Below are positions 2,266-9,238 of a stretch of DNA of 45,583 nucleotides, in pieces. The stretch is from Oscillospiraceae bacterium. Lineage in GTDB: Bacteria > Bacillota > Clostridia > Oscillospirales > CAG-272. The stretch spans positions 1-45,583 of the forward strand of contig SVRO01000001.1 of the NCBI GenBank assembly GCA_015064795.1. The letters run 5' to 3'. A program made the position numbers and the translations under genes. The notes beneath the pieces are model-generated. The model searched no databases. It was not told where the DNA came from and saw nothing but the letters and a program-made list of their open reading frames with translations. The first letter of the stretch is position 1. Every line of letters starts with the position of its first letter.

Positions 2266-2646
2266 ATGCCCGGAAATAGAAAACTCGGCAGAACGTCTGC
2301 TCACAGAAAATCTATGCTTCGCGGAATGGTAACCCTTTTGCTCGAGAACGGTCAGGTCGAGACCACGCTGACCAGAGCAAAGGAGATCCGTTCGGTAGCT
2401 GAAAAAATGATTACGCTTGGCAAGAAGAATACGCTTGCCACCCGCCGTGCTGCATTTGGATACATCACCAAGAGAGCGGTTGTTACCAAGCTCTTTGAGG
2501 AGATCGCACCCAAGTACGAGAACCGTAACGGTGGTTACACCCAGATCTTCAAGCTTGGTCCCCGTAGAGGTGACGCCGCTGAGATGGCGATCATTCGCCT
2601 TGTTGACGCGGATGCAAAGCCTGCACAGGATAAGGCTGAGGCGTAA
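2266..2646 (+). CDS. rplQ: 50S ribosomal protein L17
   Basis: 126-aa ORF starting [22 protein letters not shown], ending [24 protein letters not shown], typical of L17. Confidence 0.97.
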
Positions 2647-2653
2647 ATACGAA

Positions 2654-2695
2654 AAGAAGCTTCGGGAAGAAATTCTCGGAGCTTCTTTGTTTGTG
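2654..2695 (+). terminator. intrinsic terminator of the alpha operon
   Basis: AAGAAGCTTCGGGA (2654-2667) pairs with TCTCGGAGCTTCTT (2674-2687), including two G-U pairs. It is followed by TTTGTTTGT. Confidence 0.7.
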
Positions 2696-2724
2696 AACAA
2701 AATGTAAACAATGGAGAATTGCCC

Positions 2725-2754
2725 TTGACCAAACGCGTGTGGCGGGTGTATAAT
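2725..2754 (+). promoter_or_regulatory. SigA-type promoter for the pheA leader
   Basis: TTGACC (2725-2730), 18-nt spacer, TATAAT (2749-2754). Confidence 0.6.
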
Positions 2755-2787
2755 AAGGCCGTATTATTTTATGGAGGAGTGGAAGTC

Positions 2788-2964
2788 ATGAGAAACGCTT
2801 TGTGTCAATCGAATATGTCTTCTGCTGTCTCTGCCCGTACTGCGTGTACGGCTTCTTCTGCATCCTTTTTGGCAGTACGCTTTTTTGCGTACTGCTTTTT
2901 TTACTATTTTTATTATTTTAAGGCAACCGAATATCAGAAAAGGATACGTGCTTTCGTAGCATAA
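2788..2964 (+). CDS. candidate Phe/Tyr-rich leader peptide (58 codons) of the aromatic amino-acid operon
   Basis: GGAGGAG SD (2773-2779) lies 8 nt before ATG 2788. Codons 32-44 read FFAYCFFYYFYYF (2881-2919). The stop at 2962-2964 lies just before a terminator and pheA. Confidence 0.5.
   Translation: MRNALCQSNMSSAVSARTACTASSASFLAVRFFAYCFFYYFYYFKATEYQKRIRAFVA
2872..2902 (+). terminator. intrinsic-terminator-like hairpin T1 inside the leader ORF
   Basis: GCAGTACGC (2872-2880), TTTTTT loop, GCGTACTGC (2887-2895): a perfect 9-bp stem followed by TTTTTTT (2896-2902). Confidence 0.55.
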
Positions 2965-2978
2965 TGAAATTTGATGCC

Positions 2979-3016
2979 AAAAGCGGTTTCCTTTTCGGAA
3001 ATCGCTTTTATTTTTT
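2979..3016 (+). terminator. intrinsic terminator T2 (attenuator) immediately upstream of pheA
   Basis: GCGGTTTCC (2983-2991) pairs with GGAAATCGC (2997-3005), one G-U pair. The stem is extended by 4 A-T pairs and followed by TTTTATTTTTT. It ends 19 nt before the pheA ATG. Confidence 0.7.
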
Positions 3017-3034
3017 AAATAGAGGTATAAGAGT

Positions 3035-4120
3035 ATGAATCAGCTTGAGGAAAAAAGAAAAGAGATAAGTGCGATCGACGGCGAGATGGCAAGGCTTTTC
3101 GAGCGTCGTATGAAGGCTTGCGAAAGAGTGGCTGCATACAAGAGGGAACACGCTCTGCCCGTGTTGGATGCCGATCGCGAGGCGCAGGTGATCGCGCGCG
3201 GAGTGGAGAACATTGAGGATCCCACCCTGCGTGAGTATTATGTTAGTTTTATGAATGACGTGATGCGGACGTCGCGCGCGTATCAGACGCGTTTGCTGGA
3301 GGGAATGCGCGTGGCATACAGCGGCGTAGAGGGCGCATTTGGTCATATTGCGGCCAAAAAAGCCTTCCCCTTTGCCAAGGTTGAAGCTTGCCCCGATTTT
3401 GCCACGGCGTATCACGGCGTGGAGGAGGGCGTTTACGACTGCGCGGTGCTTCCCATCGAAAATAGCTATGCGGGTGATGTGGGGGCGGTTATGGATCTGA
3501 TGTTCTCGGGTAGCCTTTATGTCAATCAGGTCGTCGAGGTCGAGGTCAACCACAATCTTCTCGTGAAGAAAGGGGTGTCTCTCGATCAGATTAAGTGCGT
3601 GGTGAGTCATGCGCAGGCACTTGAGCAGTGTGCAGATTATATTCGTGCAAACGGCTGGGAAACGCTTTCCTATTCCAATACTGCGATGGCGGCCAAATAC
3701 GTGGCGGAGCAGGAGGATGAGTCGATCGCAGCGATCGCCTCGGAGGAGACGGCTGAGGTTTTCGGGCTTGAGGTTTTGATGCGTAACATTCATACCGCGC
3801 GCAACAACACCACGCGGTTCGCCGTGCTTTCGCGCACACAAAATTTGCCCGCGTCGACCGATCGCACGGGACGCGAGCATTTCATGCTGATGTTTACCAC
3901 CAAAAACGAGGCGGGCGCACTGGTACAGCCCCTCAACATTTTGGGCGCGCATAATTTTAACATGAGAAATCTTAGAAGCCGTCCGATGAAGGAGCTGATC
4001 TGGAATTATTACTTCTTCGTGGAGGCCGAGGGCAATATCAGCACGCAAAACGGTCAGGACATGCTTCGTGAGCTGTCGGCGGTCTGCGCGCAGATCAAGC
4101 TGGTTGGAACATACCGTTAA
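3035..4120 (+). CDS. pheA: bifunctional chorismate mutase / prephenate dehydratase (P-protein)
   Basis: 361 aa. N-terminal AroQ-type chorismate mutase helix pattern (ISAIDGEMARLFERRMKACERVAAYK). Then a prephenate dehydratase domain (VAYSGVEGAFGHIAA...NNTTRFAVLS) and a C-terminal ACT-like region. Confidence 0.92.
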   Translation: MNQLEEKRKEISAIDGEMARLFERRMKACERVAAYKREHALPVLDADREAQVIARGVENIEDPTLREYYVSFMNDVMRTSRAYQTRLLEGMRVAYSGVEGAFGHIAAKKAFPFAKVEACPDFATAYHGVEEGVYDCAVLPIENSYAGDVGAVMDLMFSGSLYVNQVVEVEVNHNLLVKKGVSLDQIKCVVSHAQALEQCADYIRANGWETLSYSNTAMAAKYVAEQEDESIAAIASEETAEVFGLEVLMRNIHTARNNTTRFAVLSRTQNLPASTDRTGREHFMLMFTTKNEAGALVQPLNILGAHNFNMRNLRSRPMKELIWNYYFFVEAEGNISTQNGQDMLRELSAVCAQIKLVGTYR

Positions 4121-4140
4121 TACCATTTTTGGAGGCAGTT

Positions 4141-5148
4141 ATGAAACTTCCCGTAAAGCATAGCGGTGGAAGCTATGATATTATTTTGGAACGAGGCGCT
4201 CTTGGACATATCGGAGATTATTTGCCGAAAACGGGCAAGGCACTCGTTGTAACCGATGACGGCGTGCCGACAGCCTATGCGCGAGCGGTGGCCGATGCCT
4301 TGCCGCAAGCAAGCATCGTGACGCTGAAGCAAGGCGAAGCAACGAAAAATCTGGATTGCTTTCGCTTCCTTCTCTCGCAAATGCTTGCGCTGGATTTTCA
4401 TCGCACCGATGCCGTAATTGCGGTGGGCGGCGGCGTGATCGGAGATCTTGCGGGTTTTGCCGCCTCGGCCTATATGCGCGGTATTGCGTTTTATAACATT
4501 CCCACTACGCTTCTTTCGCAGGTCGATTCGTCGATCGGCGGCAAGGTGGCCGTAGATATGGATGGCGTGAAAAACGTAGTGGGAGCCTTTTATCAGCCCA
4601 AACGCGTGATCATTGATCCCGATGTGCTTTCCACGCTTGAGAGAAGACAGTGCTTGGCGGGGCTTTCCGAGGCCATTAAGATGGCGGCAACAAGTGATGC
4701 GGTGCTTTTTGAGAGGATCGAGAAGGGTGACGCGCTTGGCGCGGATCTTGATGCCGTGATCGAGGGGGCGCTTCGTATCAAGCGCGACGTGGTGGAGCGC
4801 GATACCGAGGAGAAAAACCTTCGAAAAGTGCTCAATTTCGGCCATACGGTCGGTCATGCGATCGAAAGCGAGAAGAACGGCGCGTGGCTTCACGGCGAAT
4901 GTGTAGCCGTGGGTATGCTGCCCATGTGCGCGCCCAAGGTGAGAGCGCGGATCACCGCCGTTCTTGCGGCGTACGGATTACCCACTGAGGTTTCGTGTGA
5001 CCGATGGGCACTTTCCGCGCTCATCAAGCACGACAAAAAGGCATCGGGCAACGGCGTGACCGTGGTGTACGTAGAGGAGATCGGAAGCTTTGAATTCCGA
5101 ACGCTCGATATTGAGGAAATTGAGAAATATATGGAGGCAGGACTTTGA
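4141..5148 (+). CDS. aroB: 3-dehydroquinate synthase
   Basis: AroB-like sequence (GGGVIGDLAGFAASAYMRGIAFYNIPTTLLSQVDSSIGGKVAVD; NFGHTVGHAIE). I prefer ATG 4141 with GGAGG at 4131-4135 over the TTG 4129 start in the ORF track. Confidence 0.92.
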   Translation: MKLPVKHSGGSYDIILERGALGHIGDYLPKTGKALVVTDDGVPTAYARAVADALPQASIVTLKQGEATKNLDCFRFLLSQMLALDFHRTDAVIAVGGGVIGDLAGFAASAYMRGIAFYNIPTTLLSQVDSSIGGKVAVDMDGVKNVVGAFYQPKRVIIDPDVLSTLERRQCLAGLSEAIKMAATSDAVLFERIEKGDALGADLDAVIEGALRIKRDVVERDTEEKNLRKVLNFGHTVGHAIESEKNGAWLHGECVAVGMLPMCAPKVRARITAVLAAYGLPTEVSCDRWALSALIKHDKKASGNGVTVVYVEEIGSFEFRTLDIEEIEKYMEAGL

Positions 5149-6251
5149 AAAATACTTTTGGAAACAGTATAACGCTTACACTGTTCGGCGAAAGTCACGG
5201 AGAGGCGATCGGTGCGGTGCTTGACGGACTTCCCGCAGGCATCGAGGTCGACGAAGGTGTAATTTCTGCGCTCCTTGCAAAACGCCGTCCTGCCTCGGCC
5301 GTGGATACGGCAAGGCGGGAAAAGGACGAATTTTGCATCGTGAGCGGTGTGTTTGATGGCAAAACGACGGGAACGCCACTCTGTATCCTCATTCCGAACG
5401 AGGACAAGCACAGTGCGGATTACGCCAGCCTTTACGGCAAAGCAAGACCGTCGCACGCCGACTACGCGGCCTTTTGCAAATATCACGGCTTTGAGGACTT
5501 TCGCGGTGGCGGACATTTCTCAGGACGGATCACGGCGGCACTTGTGGCGGCGGGCGGTATTCTTTTGCCGATGCTGGAGCGTCTTGGTATTACGGTCGGG
5601 ACACACATTAAAAGCTGCGCCGACGTTTCGGATCGCGATTTTGACGACGCCAAGGCCGATATTGCTCACTTAAAAGCGGCGGCGTTCCCCGTGCTTGACC
5701 AAGAACGCGGGAAAGAGATGACGGCCGAGATCCTTCGCGCGAAGGACGAGCTTGACAGTGTGGGCGGCGTGGCTGAAACGGCCGTTCTTGGTATGCCGGC
5801 TGGCGTTGGTGAGCCGTGGTTTGATAGCGTAGAGGGGCTTCTTTCGCACGCGCTTTTCTCCTTGGGTGGCGTAAAGGGCGTGGAATTTGGAGACGGCTTT
5901 TCGATGGCGAAAAGTCGCGGAAGCCTTTGCAACGACACCTTTTTGATGAAGAATGGCGAAATTGTGACCGCGACCAACCATAACGGCGGACTGAACGGCG
6001 GTATCACCAACGGAATGCCCTTGGTATTTCGGTGTGCGGTAAAGCCAACCCCCTCGATTGCGCGTGAGCAGGACACGGTGGACTTTTTGCACCAGGAAAA
6101 TGTAAAGCTTGCGATCAAGGGGCGTCACGATCCCGCGATCATTCGCCGCATCTGCCCCGTCATCGACTGCGTAACGGCTCTGGTGCTTTGCGATCTGCTG
6201 GCCGTTCGCTACGGAACCGATATTTTTGGAAAAGGAAAGGAAGCACTTTGA
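5145..6251 (+). CDS. aroC: chorismate synthase
   Basis: 368 aa starting FGNSITLTLFGESHGEAIGAVLDGLPAG, with RPSHADY and GRHDPAI motifs. TTG start overlaps the aroB stop (TTGA), with GGAGG at 5133-5137. Confidence 0.95.
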   Translation: MKNTFGNSITLTLFGESHGEAIGAVLDGLPAGIEVDEGVISALLAKRRPASAVDTARREKDEFCIVSGVFDGKTTGTPLCILIPNEDKHSADYASLYGKARPSHADYAAFCKYHGFEDFRGGGHFSGRITAALVAAGGILLPMLERLGITVGTHIKSCADVSDRDFDDAKADIAHLKAAAFPVLDQERGKEMTAEILRAKDELDSVGGVAETAVLGMPAGVGEPWFDSVEGLLSHALFSLGGVKGVEFGDGFSMAKSRGSLCNDTFLMKNGEIVTATNHNGGLNGGITNGMPLVFRCAVKPTPSIAREQDTVDFLHQENVKLAIKGRHDPAIIRRICPVIDCVTALVLCDLLAVRYGTDIFGKGKEAL

Positions 6252-6269
6252 GAAAAGTGCCGAGAAAAT

Positions 6270-6707
6270 ATGAAGCTTTTGGTGATCAACGGGCCGAATT
6301 TGAATATGCTCGGTATTCGTGAGCCCGATATTTACGGAAAAGACACCTACGCCGACCTGATTGCTCGGATCGAAAATTACGCGCAGACGCTCGGTGTCAC
6401 GGTGGAGTGCTATCAGTCCAATCACGAGGGCGCGATCGTGGATAAAATTCAAGAGGCGTATTTTACAGGGGTGGACGGTATCGTTCTCAACCCTGCGGCC
6501 TATACGCACACGAGCGTGGCGATTGCTGATGCACTTAAGGCGGTAAGCATTCCTTTCGTTGAGGTTCACATTTCGGATGTGGACAAGCGAGAGGGATTTC
6601 GACAGGTCAGCTATGTTCGGGAGATTGCGCAGAGGACGATAAGCGGCAAGGGTTTTGCGGGTTATCTTGAGGCCATGGAGCTTTTGGTGGCAGAGCATGA
6701 GAGTTGA
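6270..6707 (+). CDS. aroQ: type II 3-dehydroquinate dehydratase
   Basis: 145 aa starting MKLLVINGPNLNMLGIREPDIYG, with SNHEGAIVDKIQ and NPAAYTHTSVA motifs. Confidence 0.95.
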   Translation: MKLLVINGPNLNMLGIREPDIYGKDTYADLIARIENYAQTLGVTVECYQSNHEGAIVDKIQEAYFTGVDGIVLNPAAYTHTSVAIADALKAVSIPFVEVHISDVDKREGFRQVSYVREIAQRTISGKGFAGYLEAMELLVAEHES

Positions 6708-7902
6708 GATCGAAAAGGGAACGGCACATGGTCGCGTACGCATTCCGCCCTCCAAAAGTGCCGCGCACCGACTGCTTTTGGGGGCAGCGTTAGCCAAGGG
6801 AAGAAGCCTTCTTCACGGTATGGCCTTCAGCGAGGATATTTTAGCTACGATCGATTGTATTTGCGCACTTGGCGCGAAGGTTTTGATTGACGGTGACACG
6901 GTGACGGTGGAGGGAATCGGCGGAAAACGCATCGAGCGCGAGGGGCTTCCTCTTTTGCCCTGCCGCGAGAGCGGAAGCACGCTTCGGTTTCTGATTCCCC
7001 TTGCCATGCTTTCGGGCGGAGGCGTTTTTGGTGGTACCGAGCGTCTCGTGGCGCGCGGTGTGGGAATTTATGAGAATTTATTTGATTTTGCCGATTTTAC
7101 AAAGGAAAAGAATCAAATTACCGTGCGCGGTAGTCTCAAGGCAGGCTATTATCGCGTGTCGGGCGACGTGAGCAGTCAGTTTATTACAGGACTTTTGCTG
7201 GCGCTTCCCATGCTTGACGAAGATAGCATGGTGGAGATTTTGCCCCCCTTTGAGAGCCGCGGCTACGTGGATTTGACCGTGGCAATTCTCCAACGCTTCG
7301 GCGTGGAGATCGAAAAAAAAGGAGAATTTTGCTTTTTTGTGCGCGGCGAAGTCGGTTATTCGCCCGTGGAAGCCGAGGTGGAGGGCGATTGGTCGCAGGC
7401 GGCCTTCTTTTACGGGTTAAATGTCCTCGGCGGTGAGGTCGAAGTGGACGGTCTTGATGCCGAAAGCGTACAGGGTGACCGTGTTTGCTTGGAAATCTAC
7501 GAAAAAATGAGACGCGGCAACCTTTCGGCCGATCTTTCGGACTGTCCCGATCTTGCCCCCGTTCTGTTTGCGACGGCGTGCATGGGAAAGGGCGCGCGCT
7601 TTACGGGTACGCGGCGGCTTTCCATTAAGGAAAGCGATCGTGCGCGCGTGATGGCTGAGGAGCTGCGGAAGTTTGGTGCCGAGATCACGGTAAGAGAAAA
7701 CGAGGTGGAGGTTGCACCTGCGGAGCTTCACATGCCACGGGAGATTCTTTCGGGGCATAACGATCACCGCGTGGTGATGGCACTTTCGGTGCTTGCGACG
7801 CGATTTGGCGCCGTGATCGACGGGGCCGAGGCGATTGCCAAGAGTTATCCTTCGTTTTTTGCGGATATGAGAAATTTGGGACTTAAGATACGGGAATTAT
7901 GA
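6697..7902 (+). CDS. aroA: 3-phosphoshikimate 1-carboxyvinyltransferase (EPSP synthase)
   Basis: ATG 6697 gives MRVEIEKGTAHGRVRIPPSKSAAHRLLLGAAL, a typical EPSPS N-terminus. The LPCRESGSTLRFL and SIKESDR motifs are present. It overlaps the aroQ end by 11 nt. The ORF-track start at 6655 is probably too far upstream. Confidence 0.92.
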   Translation: MRVEIEKGTAHGRVRIPPSKSAAHRLLLGAALAKGRSLLHGMAFSEDILATIDCICALGAKVLIDGDTVTVEGIGGKRIEREGLPLLPCRESGSTLRFLIPLAMLSGGGVFGGTERLVARGVGIYENLFDFADFTKEKNQITVRGSLKAGYYRVSGDVSSQFITGLLLALPMLDEDSMVEILPPFESRGYVDLTVAILQRFGVEIEKKGEFCFFVRGEVGYSPVEAEVEGDWSQAAFFYGLNVLGGEVEVDGLDAESVQGDRVCLEIYEKMRRGNLSADLSDCPDLAPVLFATACMGKGARFTGTRRLSIKESDRARVMAEELRKFGAEITVRENEVEVAPAELHMPREILSGHNDHRVVMALSVLATRFGAVIDGAEAIAKSYPSFFADMRNLGLKIREL

Positions 7903-8756
7903 TGGAATTGAAAAATAAGAAAATTTTGGTCGTGGGGCTCGGACTTATTGGCGGAAGCTACGCCGCGGCACTCTCCGCCGCGGGCTATGAGGTGGGCGGC
8001 ATTGACTGCTTGCAGGAAAGCGTGGATTATGCGCTGTCCGAGGGCTTTATTGCCAAGGGACAGAGCAAGGTGACTGCGGACTACGTCGGTGACTTTGATG
8101 TGATCGTTTTCGCGCTCTATCCGCACGTTTTGTTCGATTGGGTTGAGTGTTACGGAGGCTTTATCAAACAAGGCGCGCTTGTGACCGACGTAACAGGCGT
8201 GAAGGGTGAGGTCGTTTACCGTATGCAAAAGCTCCTCGGCGAGAGAGCCGAATTCGTGGGGGCACATCCCATGGCAGGACGCGAGGTTTACGGCATAAAA
8301 AATGCGAGTGCCACGCTCTTTTGCGGGGCAAACTATATCGTAACGCCAACCGAGAAGAATACCGAGGGGGGAATTGTACTTTGTGAAGCACTTGGCCGCG
8401 CGCTCGGTGCGCGCCGTGTGAGCCGTCTTTCGCCCGAGGAGCATGACGAAATGATCGGCTTCCTTTCTCAGCTTACGCACTGCATTGCCGTGTCGCTGAT
8501 GACCTGTAAGGAGTCGCATCAGCTCGTGGACTATACGGGCGACTCCTTCCGCGATCTGACGCGCATTGCCAAGATCAATGAGAATATGTGGAGCGAGCTT
8601 TTCCTCATGAATAAGGCCGAGCTTCTCTCGCAGATGGATCTGTTTTTGGAGCACTTTACGGCTTTGAAGGATGCGCTGGAAAAGGAAGATGCCGAAACTA
8701 TGAAGCAAATGATGCGCCTCTCAACCGAGCGCAGAAGCTATTTTGATAAAAAATAA
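7899..8756 (+). CDS. tyrA: prephenate dehydrogenase
   Basis: 285 aa with Rossmann motif ILVVGLGLIGGSYAAAL and the GAHPMAG motif. Its ATG overlaps the aroA stop (ATGA). Confidence 0.9.
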   Translation: MMELKNKKILVVGLGLIGGSYAAALSAAGYEVGGIDCLQESVDYALSEGFIAKGQSKVTADYVGDFDVIVFALYPHVLFDWVECYGGFIKQGALVTDVTGVKGEVVYRMQKLLGERAEFVGAHPMAGREVYGIKNASATLFCGANYIVTPTEKNTEGGIVLCEALGRALGARRVSRLSPEEHDEMIGFLSQLTHCIAVSLMTCKESHQLVDYTGDSFRDLTRIAKINENMWSELFLMNKAELLSQMDLFLEHFTALKDALEKEDAETMKQMMRLSTERRSYFDKK

Positions 8757-8800
8757 AACAAATTGATTTTTTGATAAATTGATGTTTATCGGTGGGAACG

Positions 8801-9144
8801 CTTAGGGAACTTTTTGAAAAAAGTTCCCTAAGAACCCTCAAAAACTTTTCCTGCGGGCAAAATGGGTGTTGCCGATCTGTAAAACGAACGAATGAGAAAA
8901 AACGAACGTAAGAGACGCTGTTCAAGTCATTTTGAGGCCGTCCGGGGAGACGGCCGAGGGCGCGCAAATGCTACATCGCCGAAAAGAAAGCGAGCTTTCT
9001 TTGTCGGCGTGTAAGCTTTGCGCTGACGGACAACCGCTTCGCGGTTGTCCGTCCCAAAATGACGTAAAGCTCTTGCAAACCAATTCGGCGAAAGTTTCGG
9101 TCAAGCCTTTTCAAAGGCTTGTGGGGTGTGGGGCAACGCCCCAC
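8801..9144. repeat. cluster of six GC-rich palindromic (REP/MITE-like) hairpins in the tyrA - DAHP synthase spacer
   Basis: Inverted repeats at 8801-8832 (15-nt arms), 8936-8955, 8977-9009, 9025-9053 (13-bp perfect stem), 9103-9120 and 9128-9144. Confidence 0.6.
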
Positions 9145-9238
9145 ATAAACAGACCGATAAATCAAAATTTGAAGTGAATAATTATTGTGACAGCGTTTCG
9201 AATACAAGAATTTTTGACGGATATTGGAGGGATTTTTT

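Follow-up and report, generated by a model that had tools for sequence, protein, structure and literature searches.

The closest described counterpart of the element reported here is the pheL-pheA attenuator of Escherichia coli and other Gammaproteobacteria (Rfam family Phe_leader; PMC3082878), the only bacterial class covered by the pheL literature that we found (PMC3082878). In this system, a leader rich in Phe codons directly precedes the gene of chorismate mutase-prephenate dehydratase, and the position of the ribosome selects either an antiterminator or an intrinsic terminator (PMC3082878). The same arrangement recurs, and the same type of choice is predicted, for a leader located between rplQ and pheA on a 45,583-nt stretch of DNA from an Oscillospiraceae bacterium (assembly GCA_015064795.1, contig SVRO01000001.1, positions 1 to 45,583 of the forward strand), which is referred to as the window. 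We propose that this leader is probably a ribosome-mediated transcription attenuator which senses charged tRNA-Phe and tRNA-Tyr together. The differences from pheL-pheA are nevertheless substantial. Sequence or structure similarity is absent (no Rfam match), and in contrast to pheL, which comprises ca. 15 aa and uses Phe codons alone, the window leader is 58 aa long (37–73 aa in its family) and contains Phe and Tyr codons. Moreover, the window operon adds the common shikimate genes and tyrA, an extra terminator-like hairpin lies inside the open reading frame (ORF) of the leader, and the host belongs to an uncultured gut lineage of Clostridia.

Leader attenuators that read more than one amino acid are known from the thr operon (Thr and Ile), ilvGMEDA (Ile, Leu and Val) and ilvBN (Val and Leu). 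As proposed for the window, a single leader mixes codons for the amino acids on which the operon depends, and a shortage of any one of them relieves termination; however, the thr and ilv leaders serve amino acids other than Phe and Tyr, belong to another phylum and share no homology with the window leader. A terminator hairpin within a leader ORF occurs in E. coli pyrBI, where a close ribosome prevents its folding; this system senses UTP via polymerase pausing and contains a single terminator. The intra-ORF hairpin of the window (hairpin C, see below) presumably plays a similar role, but a second terminator, under antiterminator control, lies 3' of it, and charged tRNA would be the signal.

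Control of the aromatic amino acid genes of Firmicutes is normally ascribed to T-boxes, TRAP or protein repressors. The Phe and Tyr T-box leaders of this phylum serve the task proposed for the window leader, in that a terminator before aromatic genes is read through at low levels of charged tRNA, but they bind uncharged tRNA directly and need no translation. Rfam also contains a leu/phe leader motif of Lactococcus. Leader-peptide attenuators for His have been reported in the Bacillus cereus group, Peptostreptococcaceae and Erysipelotrichales (PMC9413887, PMC2965389). These Firmicutes leaders and that of the window, as interpreted here, are alike in being of the classical ribosome-mediated type within a phylum dominated by T-boxes and RNA-binding proteins, and in being comparative-genomics finds, mostly untested; unlike it, they concern other amino acids and operons, show no match here, and none has been described with a terminator-like hairpin in its regulatory codon run. 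The initial annotation had called a dual Phe/Tyr leader unusual in Clostridia, which is fair, but the His leaders show that such a device is not unprecedented in Firmicutes (PMC9413887, PMC2965389). In the open-access literature, no description of a Phe/Tyr leader in Clostridia was found, and leader-peptide attenuators of Firmicutes were found for His only.

Rfam searches of positions 2600–3100 with E-values up to 10 gave nothing near a gathering score, the best match being L20_leader with 22.7 bits (gathering score 58.7) on the terminator part only. The Rfam leader families including Phe_leader did not match in four other family members, and no T-box was found in the window leader or in 20 related pheA loci. 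At gathering score, the matches in the 20 related loci were confined to terminator-shaped noise, and none concerned a leader, T-box or riboswitch family. Judged from sequence, the leader would represent a new uncatalogued family distinguished by the joint sensing of Phe and Tyr, the unusually long leader and the terminator-like hairpin in the regulatory codons, its probable mechanism being the classical one of pheL-pheA, trpL and hisL.

Leader reading frame and its Phe/Tyr codons

The reading frame, its expression signals and the genes behind it are arranged as follows.

2725..2754, + strand: sigma-70-type promoter of the leader-pheA transcript, TTGACC-18-TATAAT, 11 of 12 consensus positions (pattern scan)
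2773..2779, + strand: Shine-Dalgarno (SD) sequence GGAGGAG of the leader ORF (read from sequence)
2788..2964, + strand: leader ORF with ATG at 2788, 58 codons and TAA (translation)
2881..2919, + strand: putative regulatory codon run FFAYCFFYYFYYF, codons 32–44, 11 of 13 being Phe or Tyr codons (7 Phe and 4 Tyr; translation)
3035..8756, + strand: presumably regulated operon pheA-aroB-aroC-aroQ-aroA-tyrA (Pfam)

Sequence reading and pattern scans located the promoter, SD, start codon, 58-codon ORF, Phe/Tyr run and terminator exactly where the initial annotation had placed them. The ORF at 2788–2964 encodes MRNALCQSNMSSAVSARTACTASSASFLAVRFFAYCFFYYFYYFKATEYQKRIRAFVA, followed by the stop codon. 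Over the leader peptides of the family, Phe and Tyr together account for 22.7% of the residues compared with 6.5% in the genes of the window. When all six frames of the 45.6-kb window were inspected, 13-codon stretches with at least eight Phe/Tyr codons were found at this locus only, and the maximum in 30 block-shuffled copies of the window was seven; the run is therefore more than a chance accumulation. We infer from the sequence that the ORF is translated. Its product is not on record by exact look-up, Pfam and NCBIfam scans of four leader peptides gave no match, and a homology search among 5.8 billion proteins returned only four unnamed clusters.

The claim that the downstream genes make Phe and Tyr is borne out by Pfam. 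The product of pheA, which starts with the ATG at 3035, contains the domains CM_2, PDT and ACT (chorismate mutase-prephenate dehydratase-ACT), and the gene order in the window reads rpoA, rplQ, gap, pheA, aroB, aroC, aroQ, aroA, tyrA, with a DAHP synthase gene beyond a further gap of 467 nt. At 2652–2690, just 3' of rplQ and upstream of the leader promoter, lies another terminator-like inverted repeat (GAAGCTTCGGGAAGAAATTCTCGGAGCTTC, then TTTGTTTG), distinct from those of the leader. Given this position, the ribosomal-protein operon and leader-pheA look like separate transcription units.

The leader family in related genomes

A PheA protein scan of one genome per GTDB species provided 80 loci. 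In the closest group, whose PheA proteins are 56–94% identical, the frame upstream of pheA is open and encodes A[VM]R[FY]FAY[CRS] followed by a Phe/Tyr run. A DNA pattern derived from the conserved hairpin retrieved 39 metagenome contigs, of which two (L104, L110) are chance matches and three (L081, L106, L109) are broken; the remaining ca. 35 carry the same leader before a pheA-like start. At 92% identity, the family set comprises 27 non-redundant leaders, and the covariance model derived from them finds one copy in the window (2863–3016, 134 bits) and matches 19 of the 80 pheA loci, with no match in the Bacteroidales, Bacilli or Acutalibacteraceae loci among them. Wherever the contigs are long enough, distant members included, the gene order of the window operon recurs, pheA-aroB-aroC-aroQ-aroA-tyrA(-DAHP synthase), and the relatives possess a promoter of the type TTGACA-16/18-TATAAT at the equivalent relative position. 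In contrast, rplQ is the upstream gene only in the two closest relatives, and this variability implies that the element belongs to the pheA operon and not to rplQ.

The 36 distinct leader peptides of the family begin with 18–39 codons devoid of conservation in sequence or length, and the N-terminal 28 codons of the window leader differ between relatives. An in-frame ATG is found in every listed member and an SD-like motif 4–17 nt 5' of it in all except the AT-rich L016, where the leader ATG directly follows the -10 box. In the seven codons after hairpin C, counted over the 27 leaders, A occurs 11, 83 and 3 times and C 8, 6 and 34 times at codon positions 1, 2 and 3, respectively. This periodicity indicates a tract made of T-[T/A]-[T/C] triplets, i.e. 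of Phe/Tyr codons in frame with the ATG. Consequently, the scenario in which nothing but a T-rich tract, with neither SD nor in-frame ORF, is conserved in the relatives does not apply, as 83 of the 97 A residues stand at position 2 and 34 of the 48 C residues at position 3. The runs of close relatives are distinguished by TAT/TAC and TTT/TTC swaps, and in many members Phe/Tyr codons are also found 5' of hairpin C, e.g. as FAF, FYY or YYYFF. Counts of synonymous versus non-synonymous changes in close pairs (8 versus 18) were uninformative because the hairpin constrains the same bases.

Could the Phe/Tyr codons be a chance product of T-rich tails, namely of the U tracts of two tandem terminators which end the ribosomal-protein operon? 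U-rich DNA readily gives rise to UUU and UAU codons, the loop and the U tract of hairpin C overlap with the run, and the Phe codons of the leaders are nearly always TTT (179 TTT versus 17 TTC). However, rplQ has its own terminator-like hairpin at ca. 2652–2690, followed by a promoter, and the upstream gene is another one in all but two relatives. Furthermore, the run extends well past the U tract with its frame and codon periodicity kept, and has no equivalent elsewhere in the window or in the shuffles. We therefore regard such an origin as extremely improbable.

In the minimum-energy folds of most members, the leader SD pairs with a YCUCU segment 45–60 nt into the ORF (hairpin A, 2773–2832 in the window). 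The pairing could restrict the leader to one round of translation, although shuffled ORFs pair with the SD about equally often.

Terminator and predicted antiterminator

Downstream of the Phe/Tyr run lie two elements that are predicted to decide between termination and readthrough, and a hairpin (D) that may take part in this choice.

2979..3016, + strand: intrinsic terminator T, 13-bp stem 2979–2991/2997–3009, loop UUUUC, then AUUUUUU (pattern scan; -16.2 kcal/mol)
2937..2954, + strand: predicted antiterminator 5' strand GAAAAGGAUACGUGCUUU, inside the ORF (duplex with 2980–2996, -18.1 kcal/mol)
2922..2936, + strand: 5' segment of predicted hairpin D, holding GGCAACCG and pairing with 2963–2978 in the absence of a ribosome (-11.9 kcal/mol)

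The leader RNA from 2760 to 3034 folds more stably than all 200 dinucleotide shuffles (z = -4.6). All members have the terminator 9–44 nt 3' of the leader stop codon, and compensatory changes are found in 10 of its 11 stem pairs. Its bases 2980–2996 are those also used by the antiterminator, which was searched in each leader as the best duplex between the stretch after the Phe/Tyr run and the 5' arm plus loop of the terminator. The antiterminator proposed in the initial annotation, GGCAACCG (2922–2929) paired with CGGTTTCC (2984–2991), did not hold: with -6.8 kcal/mol it is weak, it is degraded in the closest relative L001 and used only in L020. This non-conserved pairing was rejected in favour of 2937–2954/2980–2996 with its -18.1 kcal/mol.

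Nearly all members contain, within the ORF, a motif of the type CGCAAAGG or CGAAAAGG which pairs with CCUUUGCG or CCUUUUCG in the upper part of the terminator. A second helix that reaches the base of the terminator 5' arm usually lengthens this duplex. The two motif variants co-change (A-U to C-G). On the MAFFT alignment, the eight core pairs are 82.9% paired and contain 13 double-change cells, a result reached by none of 500 shuffles, while their covariation score was matched by 2 of 500. Compared with dinucleotide shuffles of the ORF stretch, the duplex has z < 0 in 27 of 27 leaders (p < 0.05 in 15; median z -2.2), and its energy equals or betters that of the terminator in 22 of the 27. The reading frame of the AAAGG core varies (CAA AGG in L010 and L025, AAA GGN in L012 and L021), so that the constraint acts on the RNA rather than on the peptide. 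The window transcript available from 2933 and cut off at 2997, ahead of the terminator 3' arm, folds into the antiterminator with -18.9 kcal/mol.

The position of the antiterminator 5' strand relative to the codon run is also conserved. In the window, its start lies 18 nt 3' of the last Phe codon and its end 8 nt 5' of the stop codon; in the family, it starts 11–22 nt after the last Phe/Tyr codon, approximately one ribosome half-footprint, and the stop codon follows shortly 3' of the strand, except in three members with the stop codon just 5' of it. With this spacing, a ribosome on the run would leave the antiterminator strand free, and a ribosome past the run or at the stop codon would cover it.

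For topological reasons, hairpin D and the antiterminator exclude each other, and formation of D would favour termination. According to the folding results it may, with some uncertainty, act in this genome as a protector against the antiterminator.

A small hairpin, GUGCU-UUCGU-AGCAU, is found at 2949–2963 of the window; its 3' arm overlaps the leader stop codon and its 5' arm doubles as the distal antiterminator strand. Comparable small hairpins surround the leader stop in L001, L003, L009, L010, L011 and L092, in an inconsistent alignment register.

Hairpin C inside the reading frame

A second terminator-like structure is embedded in the Phe/Tyr run itself.

2871..2902, + strand: hairpin C, 9–10-bp stem 2871–2880/2887–2896, loop UUUUUU 2881–2886 (two Phe codons), U tract to 2902 (pattern scan, folding)

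An earlier hint of a transcript end at ca. 2902 is matched in the pattern scan by this second terminator-like hairpin (2871–2896) and its T tract. Hairpin C encodes AVRFFAYC, with two Phe codons forming the loop and a Tyr codon in the 3' arm, and represents the most conserved element of the family, with 96.7% of cells paired. Compensatory changes are found in four of the nine pairs, e.g. from G-C to A-U, which turn Val and Cys into Met and Arg: the sequence GCA GUA CGC...GCG UAC UGC (Ala-Val-Arg...Ala-Tyr-Cys) becomes GCG AUG CGC...GCG UAU CGC (Ala-Met-Arg...Ala-Tyr-Arg), and a further variant reads GGA GUA CGA...GCG UAC UCC. Since the compensatory changes alter the encoded amino acids, the constrained object is the RNA helix. 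Hairpin C and terminator T together are 92.5% paired on the MAFFT alignment, with 14 of 22 pairs changed on both sides; none of 500 shuffles reached these values, and slid registers fall to 40–55% paired. RNAalifold recovers both helices unaided, and in the distant members L010 and L025 hairpin C is likewise flagged as terminator-like by the pattern scan.

These substitutions also bear on the possibility that the product of the ORF is a small hydrophobic protein with a function of its own, such as a membrane peptide with a transmembrane-like aromatic stretch, the hairpins then being simply its terminators. With 37–73 aa, this product is large compared with other leader peptides, its motif A[VM]RFFAY shows conservation as a peptide, and gene callers occasionally predict the ORF as a protein. 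Nevertheless, the compensatory changes in hairpin C alter residues (Val/Cys to Met/Arg; Ala/Cys to Gly/Ser), the remainder of the peptide lacks conservation, and the four scanned peptides match no Pfam or NCBIfam entry. In addition, the ORF always lies directly before a Phe/Tyr biosynthesis operon, with the antiterminator overlapping its 3' end. Taken together, these points make such a protein function very unlikely.

Modelled on the pause hairpin of trp-type leaders and on the design of pyrBI, hairpin C would be a pause site of the polymerase or a checkpoint that terminates untranslated transcripts. It may also fill the place of the classical 1:2 protector, and the invariant nascent motif A[VM]RFFAY could possibly add to stalling. 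Since UUUUUUGCG resembles CCUUUGCG of the terminator, the loop and 3' arm of hairpin C were also considered as pairing partners of the antiterminator strand; judged by eye, such a duplex cannot outcompete hairpin C and was rejected.

Proposed mechanism

What is shown, in silico, comprises the sequence elements, which are conserved and covary, the fact that the two helices exclude each other, and a spacing that is likewise conserved. The initial interpretation as a dual Phe/Tyr attenuator is upheld, as the SD with its ATG, the in-frame Phe/Tyr run, the position of the stop codon and the terminator are conserved before pheA-aro-tyrA at 56–94% PheA identity, whatever the upstream gene. Consistent with these data we envisage the following course of events. 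Transcription would begin at the promoter 2725–2754, and a ribosome would initiate the 58-codon leader at the ATG 2788. After synthesis of hairpin C and its U tract (2871–2902), the polymerase presumably pauses, or terminates if no ribosome follows. On reaching the first Phe codons in the loop, the lead ribosome might melt hairpin C and thereby release the polymerase and start a race through the Phe/Tyr codons, which would in this way be synchronised. When Phe and Tyr are plentiful, the ribosome would pass the 13-codon stretch and cover 2937–2954 on its way to the stop codon (2962–2964), so that the terminator (2979–3009) folds and transcription ends at ca. 3016. If either charged tRNA is scarce, the ribosome would lag or stall within 2881–2919 with its footprint ending before 2937. 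The strand 2937–2954 would then be free to pair with the emerging 2980–2996, the terminator would be blocked and the polymerase would read through into pheA-aroBCQA-tyrA. Pausing or termination at hairpin C and the response to the supply of Phe and Tyr are inferred.

Several observations weigh against this interpretation. With the 3' arm of the terminator present, the terminator state (-23.3 kcal/mol) is favoured over the antiterminator (-19.7 kcal/mol) by 3.6 kcal/mol at equilibrium; as in classical attenuators, it must therefore be kinetics that decides. A conserved equivalent of hairpin D, i.e. a classical 1:2 protector, was not found in the relatives, and hairpin C is conserved in sequence to a degree beyond what pausing alone would seem to demand. 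The region around the core is free of stop codons in 23 of the 27 leaders in frame 0, but also in 15 in frame +1 and in 6 in frame +2; frame +1 is thus often open too, and because openness is only modestly specific and hence weak evidence, the codon periodicity was used in its place. Finally, all family members stem from uncultured metagenome-assembled genomes (MAGs) or metagenomes, and p-values from pooled counts are inflated by kinship among the leaders.

The missing protector and the strictness of hairpin C would also be compatible with an RNA switch run by a protein or a small ligand, in which hairpin C (GCAGUACGC-UUUUUU-GCGUACUGC) would bind a Phe/Tyr-responsive regulator in the style of TRAP or PyrR, which would choose between antiterminator and terminator, and the ORF would be incidental. 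No other element is as conserved as hairpin C, with its nearly invariant loop and closing pairs, and protein-mediated attenuation is common in Firmicutes (TRAP, PyrR and the BglG/LicT family). On the other hand, the SD and ATG are kept in frame with the Phe/Tyr codons despite the free N-terminal sequence, the periodicity of A and C matches Phe/Tyr codons exactly, such codons flank hairpin C on its 5' side as well, and the spacing between run and antiterminator fits a ribosome footprint. No protein-binding leader of Rfam rose above noise (PyrR 19.8 bits, gathering score 54). On balance, we consider a switch of this kind improbable and maintain that ribosome-mediated attenuation is the probable mode of action.

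Within the attenuation model, we tentatively advance a two-checkpoint variant, a possible but rather doubtful one, in which hairpin C kills or holds transcripts that lack a ribosome and then hands the decision over to the second terminator controlled by the antiterminator.

Neighbouring regions and other leaders

The 467-nt gap between tyrA and the DAHP synthase gene (8757–9223) contains several GC-rich inverted repeats, e.g. at ca. 8799–8832, 9026–9054 and 9120–9147; neither a Phe/Tyr-rich ORF nor a match to the leader covariance model was found in it. In some relatives, the DAHP synthase gene directly follows tyrA or pheA. A gene of a 235-aa membrane protein with a DUF554 domain (PF04474) is inserted between the leader terminator and pheA in four species, namely in L013 (2278–2985) and also in L003, L012 and L021. 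Its presumed co-regulation with pheA by the Phe/Tyr leader makes it a candidate for a role in the transport of aromatic amino acids or their precursors.

Two of the broken metagenome leaders are variants of a single leader type. L081 shows an in-frame 24-nt deletion of FFYYYFYG (ca. 1254–1300) and L109 a frameshift inside the run (ca. 6708–6760); either natural regulatory mutants or misassembly of T-rich repeats may account for them.

Phe/Tyr-rich leaders unrelated to the family were observed upstream of pheA in L032 (ca. 2770–2960) and L037 (ca. 500–700), both from Bacilli MAGs, and in L022 (ca. 1075–1290). The leader of the Bacilli MAGs encodes MAKEIRSKNLDVNATFSFYFSGYFYFSHFSPAMT up to the stop codon, and UUUCGCCAGCG inside its ORF is complementary to the 5' arm of the next terminator (CGCUGGCGAAA). 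In Candidatus Apopatocola equi, a leader containing MFMAMDRFSSMKRLFAAFEYYYAYFIGALSVYFIFGG ends with a stop codon followed by a terminator. The sequences suggest that the device has arisen more than once, independently.

Implications

Amino-acid-sensing leader peptides of Firmicutes are few, and the present analysis adds to them a covarying family, so far with 27 non-redundant members, all of them from gut and rumen Clostridia. The leader accounts for an unannotated 300-nt gap and could become an Rfam-type model. It also provides a clear case in which a single leader would monitor both Phe and Tyr, the two products of the operon it precedes. With a terminator-like hairpin in its ORF, the leader is a simple natural system in which to study how closely ribosome and polymerase are coupled in these bacteria. 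Model Firmicutes are thought to run transcription and translation largely uncoupled. If the two-checkpoint design is true, it would replace the classical 1:2 protector with a translation-coupling checkpoint and would imply tight coupling of transcription and translation in a lineage of Clostridia.

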